Counted from the stretch's first letter, positions 1 to 8,912 are shown. The stretch is DNA of 9,039 nucleotides from a virus (IMGVR_UViG_2645727555_000009:1-9039), one strand, 5' to 3'. Notes: generated by a model from the letters alone, not told the origin. Numbers and translations are program-made.

Positions 1-38
1 CGTGCGGGTGCGTTGAGGATGCCTGACACATCAGAGGT

Positions 39-60
39 GGCGAGGGATTTCTCCCTCGCC
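39..60 (-). other. Stable hairpin just downstream of the hok stop; possible mRNA 3'-end structure
   Basis: Perfect 9-bp stem GGCGAGGGA / TCCCTCGCC with a 4-nt loop, 7 nt beyond the hok stop on the transcribed strand. No U-run follows on either strand, so it is not a canonical intrinsic terminator. Confidence 0.3.
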
Positions 61-67
61 GGGTCTC

Positions 68-223
68 TTACTCCTCAGGTTCGTAAACTGTGAAGACAGC
101 GACCTCCGTCTGGCCGGTTCGGATTCGTACCTCGCAGAGGTCTTTCCTCGTTACCAGTGCCGTCACTATGACGGTTAAACAGATGACGATCAGGGCGATT
201 AACATCGCCTTTTGCTGCTTCAT
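68..223 (-). CDS. hokD: Hok/Gef family type I membrane toxin (HokD/RelF-like), 51 aa
   Basis: Translation from the internal ATG at 223 gives MKQQKAMLIALIVICLTVIVTALVTRKDLCEVRIRTGQTEVAVFTVYEPEE: a hydrophobic transmembrane helix followed by the conserved Hok periplasmic motif (RKxLCEVRIRTGQTEVA). It matches my recollection of E. coli HokD/RelF closely. AAGGAG lies 7 nt upstream of this ATG. The provided 70-aa ORF (68..280) is an in-frame upstream extension that may be a mok-like leader frame. Paralogue assignment is from memory, not a search. Confidence 0.85.
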   Translation of the reverse strand: MKQQKAMLIALIVICLTVIVTALVTRKDLCEVRIRTGQTEVAVFTVYEPEE

Positions 224-514
224 AGCCTGCTTCTCCTTGCCTTTCGGCACGTAAGAGGCTAACCTAGATTTGCCGTTCATAGATTGAGCCTCAGATTAAT
301 GTTAAGCGTCTTGCAGGACGCGTAATGTTAACTGGGGCTTTTCTCTATCTGCCTTTTGGTATTCATGCCTGAGACAGATAGCCTCAAGCACCCGCAGCAA
401 TTCTACTTAACTATCCTTTCCCCGCAAATCGTTTTTATCCCCAGCGACAAATCGAATACACCACCAGCGCCACCGCCATTGCGATCCCTACCGTTGTGAA
501 TGCCTCAGGCCAGG

Positions 515-859
515 TCATCGTAAAACATCCTCTGCGCTTATCAGTCCGTTTCGCTTCAGGTAGTCCATCGCCTTACCCGGCAATTTACAGTCCGGCTTCG
601 TTTTCCTCAGTTGCCAGGTTAACTGCTTTACCAGCATGGTTAACTCGTCGACCAGACGCTGATGTCCCACTGGTTTGTATTCATGCAATTTACCGGCTGG
701 CTCTGCTGCCAGCGATGCCAGTGCGATTTCCAGAACAGCAATATCCATCTTATATGTGCGGATGATGTCATGGTCGATTGTGCCCGGTATGCACAGTCTC
801 TGTGCTTCAATAGTCTCCTCTGCGTGAGCTATTAACTGCTCTCTGGTAAAAGTGGTCAT
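515..859 (-). CDS. Hypothetical small phage protein (114 aa), N-terminal paralogue of the 1373..1798 product
   Basis: ORF with a GAAGGAAG Shine-Dalgarno inside the upstream gene and an ATGA start/stop overlap with the 856..1371 gene. Its N-terminus ([20 protein letters not shown]...[10 protein letters not shown]) parallels MTELTKEQLIEEAKLKIAIAK...IALTSLEAEP of the 1373..1798 product, and the DNA around 690..730 resembles 1670..1710. Confidence 0.6.
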
Positions 860-1371
860 GCCGCGCTTCCTTCTTGCTTATTAACGATTACACCGTCATA
901 TATTTCATTAAGGTGTCCCCTCAACTCCATGCGCCTTAATGCAGACAACATGTAATCGCATTCAACCTGCTTATTTCCAGTAAATGGCTTATCGTCAGGA
1001 TCACCCCAACAGCAATTACCCTTGGGCCACCCATGTACTTTCCGTACTCTTCCGTTAACAACGTGAAGTAATCCCCAGCCAGGTGGTAAATCCTCAATTG
1101 AAATAATTCCCGGCTCACTAATAAAGAATCTCCAGTCGCCCATGCCAAGAGAGGGATTTTTACGGAAACGCTTTTTTCTATCTGCCAACAAGTCAGCACG
1201 AGAACACTTCGCCTCTATCAGGCATGATGCTGAATTTCTGAATCCCATAGCATCTGGTTGTTCTCCAGTACTGGTTACAGCAACAAAGCGGTCATGAAAG
1301 CAAACCTTGAACCCGTTGCGCTTAAGGAACCTGTACGCAATCTGACAGAGTTCGCGGTGTGTTAACGCCAT
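856..1371 (-). CDS. Putative PD-(D/E)xK nuclease-fold protein (Hjc / VRR-NUC-like N-terminal domain) with a Cys-rich C-terminal region, 171 aa
   Basis: The N-terminus has the layout helix ([19 protein letters not shown]), then GEQPD, then CLIEAK 11 residues after the PD, i.e. a PD...ExK motif as in Hjc/VRR-NUC resolvase-type nucleases. The C-terminal part carries several Cys (NCCWGD, ECD). Start is coupled to the upstream gene (GGAGAATGAGATG). Fold assignment is by motif recognition only. Confidence 0.5.
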
Positions 1372-4186: not shown

Positions 4187-4927
4187 TCAGTTCCTGTGCT
4201 GGCTGACGTTCGGACGCCAGCTCTCCCAGTTAAACGTCACCCAGCGACCACCGTTCATGACCATGCGGTCCATCACACGCTCGCCAAGAAGCGTACTCAT
4301 CGCTACGTGGTTCAGGTTCGTCAGCATTCCGACACTACGCATCGAAGCCGTTCTGCGGTCGACTATCTGGTTCAGTGTGACCTGCTCGTTGCGCGTATCC
4401 CGCTGCATTCCGATTTCATCCAGGACAAGCAGGTCAACATCACACAACCCCTGTAAAAATTTTTCGCCTGAGTTTTTGTTGTCGTAGCTGTTGTGTAACG
4501 CCAGCATCACATCAGCCACCGTTATCACAATCACGCTGCGACCTTTCGCCAGAAGATGATTGCCAATGGCGGCTGCAAGGTGGTTCTTTCCGGTACCCGG
4601 CTTACCGCTGAACACAAAATTCGTGCACCCTGTCATCAGTTCGTCAGCGATGGATTTTGCCTGGCTCAGCGCATGTTTTTGCCCGTCGTTCTGCACCTGA
4701 TAATTCGCAAACGAGCATTTGCTGTGCAGAGGCTGGATGCCCGAACGATTCAGGATTTTTTCCACCCGCAACTGGCGATTCTGGCGGTTGATCTCCTCGC
4801 TACGTTTTCGCCCTTCTGCCAGTTGCCACTCGCGCCACTCGTCCACTGTCCGGTACGGCGCGATTACATGCTGCGGGGTCAGCTTACGGATACGCTCAAG
4901 AACACCACCTGTCGCGATATTTTTCAT
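4187..4927 (-). CDS. DnaC-like AAA+ helicase loader (phage P-protein functional analogue; YdaV/IstB-like ATPase)
   Basis: Walker [16 protein letters not shown] and Walker [10 protein letters not shown], 246 aa, AGGGGGTAA Shine-Dalgarno, lying immediately downstream of the initiator gene. Confidence 0.85.
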
Positions 4928-4933
4928 GGCCCG

Positions 4934-5899
4934 TTACCCCCTGAACCCCGGCGGAATTTCGGTATCCGGCTCAGAAATATGATTCACGCAACGCTGTACA
5001 GACGAACGCCCCAGGCGGATAACCAGTTCATCCCATTTTTCGCGAAGCTTTGACGGACTCATGATATTTTTTACCCAGAATGGATCCCGCTGCGCCCGAC
5101 CAAACATTTCACAAATTTGTCTGTGAGTTCTGCCATCCAGCATCCGCATTGTGCGCACGTCGTTGGCCCATGCGGTCCAGTTGGGTTCTTTCGGTCGCGA
5201 AATCTCGCCATCATCGCTGGCGGCCTGCTCGTAAAGACTCACGATTCGTCCCCAGATCCACTGCGCACACGCCAAATCTTCCTGGTTGCCCCACTGGCGT
5301 TTTTTTGCACTGAACACAACCGCGTCAGGGTGTCGGGTTAAAAAATCCTGTTCAACCGTCTGCGGGTCCGGTTGCGAAGCTTCCGGACGAGAAGTGTTTT
5401 TATTCTCTGTAGTAATCTCTGTTGTATTCTCTGTAAGATCATCAGGCCATTTTGACCCGATGACATTGAGTCGTTTTGAACCAATGGAACGTGCCATTTT
5501 GGCCCCTTCCATCGTGTCATTCTGACCTGATGGAGCAGCGCATTTTGACCTGATGGATTCGCTCACTTTGCCACCATTTAAAAGCTCGCTCTCGTAATTA
5601 ATCGTGTAAAAATTAGTCATATCACGCTTTGATTTATTGAGCTTTTCGCAACGCAAAAGCCCCAGCGTTTTCAGACTTGCAAATGCGCGTTTTAACGTTG
5701 ACTCTGACCAGAACGGGAACTGCTCCAGCCATTGTTCTGTTGTGTTATAAATCCAGCGAACACCATCACATTCCATGCCGGAACCGGTATCTCTCAACCA
5801 GTAATGCAACTGCTGCAACACGATGGCTTCGTTCAGACCAATTTTCATCGCCAGCTGCGTGTTTATAACCAGCGGACGTTCAGCAAAAAGGAGCTTCAT
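4934..5899 (-). CDS. Phage replication initiation protein (lambda O-like / YdaU-like), with the origin iterons inside the coding sequence
   Basis: Long ORF upstream of the DnaC-like gene. ATG at 5899 (MKLLFAERP…); the provided ORF extends to a TTG at 5923 that overlaps the ydaT stop. Five iterons lie inside the coding sequence, encoding the repeated IGSK peptide. The C-terminus is the type typically fused to helicase-loader-recruiting initiators. Confidence 0.75.
   Translation of the reverse strand: MKLLFAERPLVINTQLAMKIGLNEAIVLQQLHYWLRDTGSGMECDGVRWIYNTTEQWLEQFPFWSESTLKRAFASLKTLGLLRCEKLNKSKRDMTNFYTINYESELLNGGKVSESIRSKCAAPSGQNDTMEGAKMARSIGSKRLNVIGSKWPDDLTENTTEITTENKNTSRPEASQPDPQTVEQDFLTRHPDAVVFSAKKRQWGNQEDLACAQWIWGRIVSLYEQAASDDGEISRPKEPNWTAWANDVRTMRMLDGRTHRQICEMFGRAQRDPFWVKNIMSPSKLREKWDELVIRLGRSSVQRCVNHISEPDTEIPPGFRG
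5448..5558. repeat. Putative phage replication origin: five iterons (consensus CATTTTGACCTGATGGA) with about 23-bp periodicity, followed by a moderately AT-rich segment (5560..5640)
   Basis: Iteron starts at 5448, 5472, 5495, 5518 and 5541 (spacing 24/23/23/23). The two best copies are CATTCTGACCTGATGGA (5518..5534) and CATTTTGACCTGATGGA (5541..5557). The layout matches a lambda-type origin embedded in the O gene. Confidence 0.7.
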
Positions 5900-5908
5900 C
5901 CCCCCCCC
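5900..5908. repeat. Homopolymeric tract (C9 on plus, G9 on the coding strand) directly abutting the initiator ATG
   Basis: Nine consecutive C at 5900..5908. On the minus strand this is GGGGGGGGG immediately 5' of the ATG at 5899, or inside the coding sequence if the TTG at 5923 is the start. Confidence 0.9.
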
Positions 5909-5919
5909 AGAACACGTTA

Positions 5920-6345
5920 TCAATGCGCCACCACGGCATTTCCCGCCGGACCACCACGATTCATCTGATCGAACAACACGATCGCTGCCGCAACAAACTC
6001 ATCGATATCTTTCACCAGGCGCTCCCGTCGCTCGACAAGCTCCCGGTGATATTCCGAACTGTGGCTGCGCATTCGGGCCACCAGTGGAGGCGGCATTGCT
6101 TTTTCGATCGCCGGTAACAACGCCTGAATTTTTTTAACCGCATCAGGGGTGTCTTTTTCTACCCAGCGGAAAATTTTCTGGGTATTACGAGACAGGGCTT
6201 CCGGATGGCTGTCGTCATACAGTTCAGGAAACGTCATACCCAACTCAAAATAAGCCTGGGTTATTCCAGCTACTGGAACTTTTTCGCCATCAGGACGCGC
6301 CCAGGCATTCATTGCCATGCGGATGTGTTCATGCTTGATTTTCAT
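5920..6345 (-). CDS. ydaT: YdaT-like protein (proposed cII functional analogue of Rac/CP-933P-type prophages), 141 aa
   Basis: Sits second in the rightward operon, directly after the Cro-like gene and before the replication genes. Its size and N-terminus (MKIKHEHIRMAMNAW…) fit my recollection of the YdaT family. Family assignment is from memory. Confidence 0.55.
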   Translation of the reverse strand: MKIKHEHIRMAMNAWARPDGEKVPVAGITQAYFELGMTFPELYDDSHPEALSRNTQKIFRWVEKDTPDAVKKIQALLPAIEKAMPPPLVARMRSHSSEYHRELVERRERLVKDIDEFVAAAIVLFDQMNRGGPAGNAVVAH

Positions 6346-6604
6346 GAATCACCCCCGCCTCTGGTTGTGTGTTAGCCTGATACTCGACAGGTAAGCCGTC
6401 GGTTGGGTTGGGATAAGTACTGCCATCAATCTCGTGCGGAGTTACTATCCAGCCTGTTGCTTCGCACCAGCGTAAAATTTTTTTCCCCGTAAGTTTCGCC
6501 CGTCCGGTAATGACATGGCTTACCATCCCTTGGGTTACCCCAACAATTTCAGCAAAATGCTTCTGAGTTATACCGGAATGATGCAAATATTCTCCAAGAT
6601 TCAT
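6329..6604 (-). CDS. ydaS: Cro-like HTH regulator (YdaS/DicC-type), 91 aa
   Basis: First gene of the rightward operon, divergent from the repressor gene. HTH segment ITQKHFAEIVGVTQGMVSHV; GAGGTGA Shine-Dalgarno 5 nt before the ATG at 6604. Confidence 0.65.
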   Translation of the reverse strand: MNLGEYLHHSGITQKHFAEIVGVTQGMVSHVITGRAKLTGKKILRWCEATGWIVTPHEIDGSTYPNPTDGLPVEYQANTQPEAGVIHENQA

Positions 6605-6711: not shown

Positions 6712-7212
6712 ATGAAAAGAAAATCCCTGTCAGAGATCGACCTGCAAGCCGCCCAGAGACTGAAAGAAATCTGGACGGCGAAAAAAAATCAACTAGGGTT
6801 AACCCAAGAGCGTGCGGCAGAAATTCTGGGATTTTCGACACAGGGAGCTGTAAGCCATTATCTAAATGGTCAGACACCTTTAAATCTTGAGGCTGTTATC
6901 AAGTTCGCAGGGTTGCTGCAAGTTCCTCCCGAGTCAATCAGACCAGATATGGCCGAGTTGTTACAAATTGTAAGGATGTATCCCCAAGAATCTGGGGAGG
7001 ACAATGTTGTCACTATATCTGCAGATATGGAACAATCGGAAAACGAACTTCCGTTTAATATAGACCCCATGGAGCGGGATTTGCTCCAGACGTTCAGGGC
7101 TTTCCCCAAAGAAGATAAAGAGAAAATGCTTAAGGAAATGAAGGAGAAAAAAGAATCAATTGAAGAAATCGTTGCGCGATGGCTAGCTGCGCAAAAGGGT
7201 CGTCGCGCCTAA
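6712..7212 (+). CDS. paaR2: Prophage repressor at the cI position (PaaR2-like HTH_XRE regulator), 166 aa, lacking a LexA/S24 autocleavage domain
   Basis: N-terminal HTH (LGLTQERAAEILGFSTQGAVSHYLNG), divergent from the Cro-like gene. The C-terminus is E/K-rich with no Ser-Lys peptidase motif. It is followed by an antitoxin/toxin pair, as in the O157:H7 paaR2-paaA2-parE2 locus. The gene symbol is a recollection-based assignment. Confidence 0.6.
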   Translation: MKRKSLSEIDLQAAQRLKEIWTAKKNQLGLTQERAAEILGFSTQGAVSHYLNGQTPLNLEAVIKFAGLLQVPPESIRPDMAELLQIVRMYPQESGEDNVVTISADMEQSENELPFNIDPMERDLLQTFRAFPKEDKEKMLKEMKEKKESIEEIVARWLAAQKGRRA

Positions 7213-7229
7213 TCTGAGGAGGTAAAAAC

Positions 7230-7421
7230 ATGAGTACAGCCCTTTCCCCGATAATTTCTGAATTTGAAACAGTCGAACAAGAAAACAGCTATAACGAATG
7301 GTTGCGAACCAAAGTGGCAGCAAGCCTCTCAGATCCCCGTCCTGCAATTCCACATGACGAAGTAATGGCTGAAATGGAAAACCTTATTGCTCAATTAGCT
7401 GCAACGAACAGGAGTGAGTAA
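7230..7421 (+). CDS. paaA2: Small antitoxin of a ParE-type toxin-antitoxin module (PaaA2-like), 63 aa
   Basis: Strong GAGGAGG Shine-Dalgarno; 63 aa, acidic; its stop overlaps the toxin start (TAATG). Size, position and sequence (…SEFETVEQENSYNEWLR…PRPAIPHDEV…) fit my recollection of PaaA2. Confidence 0.6.
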   Translation: MSTALSPIISEFETVEQENSYNEWLRTKVAASLSDPRPAIPHDEVMAEMENLIAQLAATNRSE

Positions 7422-7711
7422 TGCTGCCCATTTTATGGCTACCTTCTGCACGTGATGATTTACGTCAGATCGTAGCCTATATTGCTAAGGAAAACCCTCC
7501 CGCTGCACGTAGACTAAAAATACGCATTGAAACATCAGTTTTGTCACTTACTGAACACCCTTATCTGTACCCACCGAGCGAAAGAGTTCCAAGTCTTCGT
7601 GAGATAGTGACTCATCCTAACTACATAATACTTTACCGAGTAACAGCATCTAACATCGAGATCGTAAATGTAGTTCACTCACGAAGACAGTATCCAAACA
7701 AAACCTGTTAA
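7421..7711 (+). CDS. parE2: ParE/RelE-superfamily toxin (ParE2-like), 96 aa
   Basis: Translationally coupled to the upstream antitoxin by a 1-nt overlap. The sequence has the ParE-family pattern (…LRQIVAYIAKENPPAARRL…YRVTASNIEIVNVVHSRR). Confidence 0.7.
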   Translation: MLPILWLPSARDDLRQIVAYIAKENPPAARRLKIRIETSVLSLTEHPYLYPPSERVPSLREIVTHPNYIILYRVTASNIEIVNVVHSRRQYPNKTC

Positions 7712-8854: not shown

Positions 8855-8912
8855 TTTCTGGTGACGTTTGGCGGTATCAGTTTTACTCCGTGGCTGCTCT
8901 GCCGCCCTTTTT
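8855..8912 (+). ncRNA. dicF: DicF small RNA (prophage-encoded inhibitor of ftsZ translation) with its intrinsic terminator
   Basis: TTTCTGGTGACGTTTGGCGGTATCAGTTTTACTCCGTGGCTGCTCTGCCGCCCTTTTT matches my recollection of E. coli DicF with about one substitution. A GGCGG…CCGCC terminator stem is followed by a T5 run. It lies downstream of ydfC as in the Qin dicB operon. Confidence 0.8.

Follow-up and report, generated by a model that had tools for sequence, protein, structure and literature searches.

A probably complete hokD/hokW-clade hok/mok/sok cassette in the early-right region of a lambdoid prophage

The closest described systems and the locus in the window

The hok/mok/sok (parB) locus of plasmid R1 is the reference system of its family, a plasmid-borne module with a proven role in post-segregational killing. 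In R1 the mok AUG lies at 116-118, the hok AUG at 174-176, and Mok is a product of 70 aa (Le Rhun 2022). The chromosome of E. coli K-12 carries hokC (gef)/mokC/sokC, in which mokC starts 57 nt upstream of hokC and has its stop in common with it, and sokC, read from the opposite strand, has its start 8 nt into mokC. A further K-12 gene, hokD (relF), is the third gene of relB-relE-hokD in Qin. Closest to the locus described here are hokW/mokW/sokW of the Stx2 phages 933W and Sp5, and in 933W all three genes are annotated (Plunkett 1999, AF125520).

The Sp5 copy has been characterized experimentally (Takada 2021, PMC8621323). HokW is toxic and sokW neutralises it, in a manner that depends partly on RNase III and Hfq. 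Mutation of the -10 element abolishes neutralisation; primers YO-421/422 change the sokW -10 from TAACCT to GAGCCG, and antitoxin activity is lost. After mitomycin C treatment SokW disappears, and HokW is made in a RecA-dependent fashion on induction. The hokW-sokW locus aids lysis, brings a two-fold gain in phage release on induction and has no effect on growth of the lysogen. The same study puts the identity between HokW and R1 Hok at only ~44%.

The DNA analysed here, referred to as the window, is a stretch of 9,039 nucleotides from a virus (IMGVR_UViG_2645727555_000009:1-9039). Positions 1..~430 of its minus strand very probably hold a complete and ordinary hok/mok/sok type I toxin-antitoxin cassette of the hokD/hokW clade, a reading that is drawn from the sequence. 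The cassette is an already known element; hok/sok modules of this hokD/hokW type are common to many E. coli prophages. Four complete E. coli genomes match positions 1..514 at 100% identity, and 2844 of 5426 genomes contain 80% or more of this 514-base query, where PGAP annotates hokD only; automatic annotation thus names the toxin gene and omits mok and sok.

Over positions 4..419 the window shares 93% DNA identity with hokW/mokW/sokW of 933W and Sp5 and has the same layout as 933W, with an in-frame mok 57 nt upstream of hok and a sok that overlaps the mok start. The Mok products are 89% identical; the Hok C-termini differ, reading FTVYEPEE in the window and FVDYESEK in HokW (933W/Sp5). K-12 hokC has the same architecture, its 5′ leader aligns well with that of the window and its Rfam match is similarly strong. 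Identity to hokC/mokC/sokC is ~80% at the DNA level and 68% for Mok; the K-12 locus differs in having a Sok hairpin that is 18 nt shorter and in being interrupted by IS186 after the 3′ hairpin.

The toxin gene itself, hok (68..223, minus strand), encodes a 51-aa protein, MKQQKAMLIALIVICLTVIVTALVTRKDLCEVRIRTGQTEVAVFTVYEPEE, within the size range of these small hydrophobic toxins (~50 aa). A preceding interpretation of the window, made from the sequence alone and called here the sequence-only reading, had described it as a near-canonical Hok/Gef type I toxin, and the profile matches bear this out. Pfam PF01848 (HOK_GEF) is matched over its full model length at 2.6e-22, with 78.6 bits against a cut-off of 22, PHROG 251 ('MokW-like host killing') at 2.8e-32, and Rfam RF01794 at 112 bits. 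The NCBIfam Hok subfamily model gives 45 bits, below its cut-off of 73, and PGAP labels the identical CDS hokD (WP_000813256.1). The K-12 hokD gene is one nucleotide and one residue apart from the window hok (V46 in the window, A46 in K-12; 98% identity). The hok Shine-Dalgarno (SD) sequence, AAGGAGAAG (230..238, minus strand), lies inside mok, and both this SD and the hok AUG are invariant in an alignment of 115 distinct clade sequences.

Near the end of hok, the tetranucleotide UACG at 82..85 (minus strand) includes the Tyr47 codon (UAC, 85..83) and is a candidate A-to-I editing site. It is invariant in the 115 sequences, and the bases adjacent to it vary. We take UACG to be the motif of TadA A-to-I editing, by which Tyr is recoded to Cys. 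The flanking bases can pair as a short stem in both the window and the 933W versions. For hokD, a preprint describes A-to-I editing at the same position with recoding to Cys (bioRxiv 10.1101/2025.08.07.668861).

Alignment of positions 1..514 to the Rfam models, which the sequence-only reading had proposed, returns RF01794 at 393..218 on the minus strand (112 bits, E 1.3e-25). The 393-nt RNA that begins there has a predicted folding energy of -155.5 kcal/mol (z = -8.8), and 0 of 100 shuffled sequences are as stable; together with the Rfam match this argues that the observed features are not due to chance.

RF01794 carries the name 'sok antitoxin', and it matches the toxin strand, covering the hok mRNA leader from +1 to the hok AUG. 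The orientation is the same in K-12 hokC, 933W hokW and R1-type loci, and the annotated sok genes of K-12 and 933W lie on the strand opposite to the match. The model therefore describes the hok mRNA leader, and the antitoxin is its complement. RF01794 hits give the wrong antitoxin strand and need to be flipped to place Sok.

The predicted mRNA switch, the putative antisense RNA and their proposed action

The promoter of the hok/mok mRNA is placed at 400..428 (minus strand), with a probable -10 TAGAAT (405..400, positions -12..-7) and a weak -35 TTTGCG (428..423). K-12 hokC reads TATAAT at the place aligned with this -10, and in R1 a T-12C change stops hok transcription (Le Rhun 2022). A scan of positions 1..600 for consensus promoters and terminators found none: the hok and Sok promoters are both sub-threshold, the former because its -35 is weak, and promoters were therefore placed by homology to mapped or annotated relatives. 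The hok mRNA (1..393, minus strand) would start at 393 with GGGUGC..., where position 1 of RF01794 aligns and which corresponds to the mRNA start in K-12 hokC, 933W and R1-type loci, and it runs to the edge of the window.

Judging from relatives, the terminator should lie ~5-30 nt beyond position 1, outside the window. In L001, an E. coli genome identical over 1..514, the intrinsic terminator CCCGCTTCGGCGGGTTTTGTTTTTT is found directly left of position 1; the window thus appears to cut the transcript a few bases after fbi, its last regulatory element. Since L001 is identical to the window only over 1..514 and ~94% identical beyond, what is said about the sequence left of position 1 is drawn from relatives. 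A terminator after fbi is present in most clade copies and missing in 933W-type copies. What is conserved stops at fbi, and termination is provided in different ways depending on the context.

Four short elements on the minus strand, together with the mok SD, make up the predicted switch. The translational activator element tac (GGGUGCUUGAGG, 382..393) forms the 5′ end of the transcript, and the fold-back inhibitory element fbi (CCUCAACGCACCC, 6..18) lies close to its 3′ end. Between them lie ucb, an anti-SD box (AAAAGCCCCAG, 332..342) of the kind defined in Le Rhun 2022, the mok SD region (CUGAGGCU, 287..294), with GAGG at 292..289, 8 nt upstream of the mok AUG, and the downstream complementary box dcb (AGCCUC, 255..260). 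As in R1, dcb sits at the Sok promoter; in the window it lies just upstream of the -10 on the plus strand and overlaps its first base. R1 has the same elements: its mok SD is likewise GAGG, with a spacing to hok that is within one nucleotide of that in the window, its 3′ stem-loop lies just past the stop, and its fbi is near the 3′ end.

The predicted folds of this RNA depend on its 3′ end. In the full-length minimum free energy (MFE) fold, tac pairs with fbi over 12 bp with one bulged C (393..382 with 18..6), closing the molecule from 5′ to 3′ end, and ucb pairs with the mok SD. When the last 19 nt, and with them fbi, are removed, the MFE fold changes: tac pairs with ucb, and the mok SD, as GAGGCU, pairs with dcb. 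In these models ucb binds the mok SD while the RNA is closed and tac once it is open, and the mok SD is sequestered by ucb when closed and paired with dcb when open. A transcript cut at the 3′ hairpin forms a 5′ metastable hairpin between tac and the sequence that immediately follows it. The predicted folds thus describe an alternative-pairing switch and appear to reproduce the closed, open and metastable states, the same three conformations published for R1 (Le Rhun 2022).

Comparison within the clade is consistent with this picture. In the 115 distinct sequences tac does not vary at all, and little or no variation is seen in ucb, the two SDs and the two Sok promoter hexamers; 933W shares its Sok promoter hexamers, tac, ucb and fbi with the window letter for letter. 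The tac/fbi helix is 99.9% paired, its changes being confined to GC to GU and to variation of the bulge. The helices overall are 97% paired, with some compensatory changes, in counts that take their structure from one member of a close set (91% mean column identity) and lean towards that member. The 5′ hairpin contains one AU-to-GC double change. Changes on both sides of a pair amount to 27 per cell, above all 500 shuffles; pairs with a double change number 6, where shuffles give 4.0 +/- 1.4, and there is little true covariation. The pairing data are supportive and do not constitute independent proof.

A perfect 9-bp inverted repeat begins 7 nt past the hok stop and forms a stem-loop at 39..60 (minus strand; arms 39..47 and 52..60, loop of 4 nt). 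The sequence-only reading had pointed it out, and its relatives add that it is kept by compensatory changes: it is 98.8% paired among the 115 sequences, with one pair found as GU, AU or GC and another as GC, GU or AU. By its position, this hairpin is probably the last stem-loop of the processed, translatable mRNA, whose end it is predicted to form. In R1, disrupting the last stem-loop exposed the truncated hok mRNA to 3′ exonucleases (Le Rhun 2022), and the window hairpin is at the same position as this protective structure. A role of the hairpin as a terminator was considered and rejected, as no U tract follows it.

On the plus strand an antisense RNA had been expected at around 230..340, and homology to the annotated sokC (K-12) and sokW (933W) places one there. 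The putative Sok promoter (237..265) consists of a -35 TTGCCT (237..242), a 17-nt spacer and a -10 TAACCT (260..265); from -35 through -10 it is identical to sokW of 933W/Sp5, and its columns are invariant or nearly so in the clade alignment. The putative Sok RNA (272..342, plus strand), with coordinates transferred from the same two annotated genes, would be ~71 nt long with a 3′ end between 342 and 348. It would cover the mok start in cis from its own promoter. Its predicted fold is a long terminal hairpin with a U-rich tail (-33.3 kcal/mol, z = -6.3).

The sequence elements are those present in the window; the activity attributed to them in the following mechanism is carried over from the hok/sok family. 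A weak constitutive promoter would yield a stable mRNA of ~420 nt, in which pairing of the 5′ tac with the 3′ fbi lets ucb lock the mok ribosome-binding site, and this full-length RNA would be neither translated nor bound by Sok. Slow trimming of the 3′ end to the 9-bp hairpin (60..39) would remove fbi; tac would then turn to ucb, and the mok SD would join dcb in a hairpin that exposes the mok start region in its loop. The short, unstable Sok (272..~342) would pair at this region and block mok translation, leading to RNase III cleavage. Once Sok is exhausted, mok would be translated, ribosomes passing through the 19 upstream codons would open the hok start, and Hok would depolarise the inner membrane. 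Toxicity of Hok and its neutralisation by Sok are known for the 93%-identical hokW-sokW and, by analogy, predicted for the window copy.

In a prophage the likely cause of Sok loss would be induction, by analogy with the hokW-sokW locus of Sp5; alternatively, Sok might run out when the element is lost or another phage infects the cell. It is conceivable, if on the doubtful side, that the cassette serves mainly to stabilise the prophage, by killing cells that lose it, or as an abortive-infection defence against other phages, rather than to help lysis. The sole experiment on a prophage copy of the clade speaks against this, with no growth effect in the lysogen and the two-fold gain in release on induction, and no enrichment of the cassette near defence systems was found. 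It is important to point out that lysis help, prophage stabilisation and defence are not mutually exclusive.

An intact-looking locus may be only weakly active in practice, and for chromosomal hok loci of E. coli it has been proposed that they are inactive. That the window copy, too, is a relic, complete in appearance but unable to kill or to be switched on, is improbable. Such a view could draw on the poor match of both window promoters to consensus and on the visible damage to the K-12 copies, where hokC is cut at its 3′ end by IS186 and hokD is truncated at its 5′ end. In the window, however, every regulatory element is intact and visibly constrained across the 115 relatives, the excess of both-sides pair changes over all 500 shuffles included, and the Hok ORF is intact and a single residue from that of K-12 HokD. 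The 93%-identical hokW-sokW, which has the same Sok promoter, is moreover experimentally active (Takada 2021, PMC8621323). An intact hok/mok/sok cassette of the ordinary type remains the preferred reading.

The reading frame of mok, relBE and the genomic setting

Two properties of the locus might seem unusual, the frame of its leader ORF and the lack of a neighbouring relBE. The hok frame stays open for 19 codons further upstream, as the sequence-only reading had noticed, up to an ATG at 280..278, which gives an ORF of 70 codons (mok, 68..280, minus strand) in frame with hok and with a common stop. By its sequence, this in-frame extension is mok: it has an SD of its own, it starts 57 nt upstream of hok, where leader ORFs of the family start 57-58 nt upstream, and it extends over the hok start. 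In each of the 115 distinct clade sequences of the alignment mok is in frame, with no indel between the two ATGs, and an in-frame mok at 57 nt is the annotated layout of both K-12 mokC/hokC and 933W mokW/hokW.

The R1 mok begins 58 nt ahead of hok and out of frame, and its 70-aa product has a sequence unrelated to that of Hok. The sequence-only reading had placed mok of classic hok/sok loci in a different frame, which for R1 is correct according to the coordinates in Le Rhun 2022. Among 80 R1-clade loci from different species, 38 have an SD and ATG 58 nt upstream, out of frame, including all four with a Hok 100% identical to that of R1 (L166-L169), and 19 have them 57 nt upstream, in frame. 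The frame of mok with respect to hok is, on these sequences, not a constant of the hok/sok family; the in-frame extension does set the window locus apart from R1, as a variant already known and annotated. This agrees with the published view that what counts is translation of mok and not the Mok product; in R1, stop codons in mok past the hok start are without effect on hok (Le Rhun 2022).

One IncFII plasmid copy (L005) had suggested that mok of R1 itself is in frame, an idea refuted by the Le Rhun 2022 coordinates and by L166-L169, all with a 58-nt, 70-codon, out-of-frame mok. As an observation in its own right, loci for the identical R1 Hok come in two forms, with mok out of frame in L166-L169 (58 nt, 70 codons) and in frame in L005 (57 nt, 71 codons), a difference of 1 nt. 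Comparison of L005 with L166-L169 amounts to a natural experiment on whether the Mok product matters.

As had been pointed out from the sequence, the window hok does not adjoin relBE: it has its own leader and promoter, with unrelated ORFs upstream, and the relB-relE-hokD arrangement of K-12 Qin is absent from the window. In K-12, hokD starts 71 nt after relE, and homology to the window locus begins only at the hok SD, from where it extends through a 3′ UTR that, hairpin and fbi included, is almost identical. K-12 hokD has therefore lost its promoter, tac, ucb, mok start and sok, all of which the window locus possesses. As far as the sequences tell, the K-12 relBE-hokD arrangement is derived and 5′-truncated and that of the window is the intact form, and canonical regulation is to be expected here rather than a deviation. 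K-12 hokD, the usual reference, is a poor guide to the intact locus.

The earlier suspicion that an in-frame mok and the missing relBE signal an unusual kind of control is not supported. Regulation different from that of known hok loci, such as a 70-aa Mok-Hok fusion toxin or Sok-independent control, is most unlikely: translation of an in-frame mok does yield an N-terminally extended Hok, unlike the unrelated 70-aa Mok of R1, but this frame is the rule in the clade, has been annotated since the 933W genome and is shared by 19 of the 80 R1-clade loci, mok contains an invariant hok SD and AUG, in R1 it is mok translation up to the hok start that matters and not its product (Le Rhun 2022), and adjacency to relBE is a K-12 rearrangement that removed the native controls.

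In all likelihood the ordinary hok/mok/sok cassette is a compact, self-contained insert of the 'moron' kind within the early-right part of a lambdoid prophage. On the minus strand the gene order is a Cro-like helix-turn-helix (HTH) gene, a YdaT-like gene, an O-like initiator, a DnaC-like loader, several unknown nin-like ORFs and hok; in a relative, DUF968, rusA and Q come after hok. The placement of hok at the end of a nin-like region, as first proposed, is broadly right by this gene order and by Q in the relative. The cassette thus stands between replication/nin-like genes and Q here, and near the right genome end in 933W. In 933W/Sp5-type copies homology ends right after fbi.

The window as a whole was not found intact in any complete E. 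coli genome, the best match being 96% over 91%, and by sequence it is a mosaic. At 5923..6604 (minus strand) the HTH Cro-like ORF (91 aa) overlaps an ORF with a YdaT_toxin domain (141 aa, Pfam 3.2e-10), and this pair heads the early-right operon, followed by the O-like initiator (4934..5923) and the DnaC-like loader (4187..4927). A 171-aa ORF at 856..1371 (minus strand) matches only residues 62-230 of PHROG 9263, and in L001 the corresponding gene carries a frameshift annotation; the ORF may have lost its N-terminal part. Right next to the hok promoter, on its upstream side at 435..518 (minus strand), lies an unannotated hydrophobic ORF of 27 aa whose ATG overlaps the stop of a 114-aa ORF (ATGA). 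Of 155 cassette copies ~45 keep it, 933W included, with changes that are for the most part conservative, and it has no match in Pfam, PHROGs or NCBIfam.

The plus strand carries a three-gene block at 6712..7711, consisting of an HTH repressor-like gene (166 aa, with a weak DicA-like C-terminus), a PaaA2-type antitoxin and a ParE-type toxin; presumably it resembles the paaR2-paaA2-parE2 arrangement of O157:H7. The antitoxin/toxin pair (7230..7711) is the only RelB/ParE-like pair in the window. Its antitoxin (63 aa) matches Pfam at 1e-21 and its toxin (96 aa) at 6.6e-18. NCBIfam and PGAP label the pair RelB family and RelE/ParE (relB in relatives), and comparison of the pair with K-12 RelB and RelE gave no detectable similarity. 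A full-length Rfam match to the DicF small RNA lies at 8856..8907 (plus strand; 75 bits, E 1.4e-15). In relatives DicF is preceded by ydfA/B/C and followed by dicB, and the region is therefore of the Qin/dicB type, on the immunity side.

A hypervariable patch and the meaning of the locus

A stretch of ~20 nt (266..287) covers mok codons 1-5 and at the same time forms both the apical part of the Sok-target hairpin and the 5′ tail of Sok; it shows the highest diversity within the locus in the clade comparison. It falls into at least six discrete sequence classes between invariant flanks. All of these classes fold into the same target hairpin and differ from each other at 6-9 of 16 positions; the window belongs to the MNGKS class and 933W/Sp5 to the MLNTC class, 6 of 16 nt apart. 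Prophage cassettes that are otherwise 93-99% identical carry different classes. One O157:H7 genome has three copies of the cassette with three different patch classes. Among extra copies in multi-copy genomes, identified with class-specific probes on the 5426 genomes, there is no sign of class avoidance, as 524 of 1909 (27%) share a class, against 26-35% at random.

For discovery the value of the locus is small: it is a textbook module, and the near-identical hokW-sokW has been annotated since 1999 and was tested in 2021. Its in-frame leader ORF and its post-stop hairpin, odd-looking as they are, are standard parts of the hok/sok family. Beyond this, the patch classes might be orthogonal in specificity, and, because the cassette is co-directional with the antiterminated early operon, readthrough on induction would collide with the Sok promoter and might serve as the RecA-dependent trigger. 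Taken together these two proposals are speculative and rather unlikely. If they were true, the patch classes would let co-resident prophages each keep a private hok/sok timer that the Sok RNAs of their neighbours do not neutralise.
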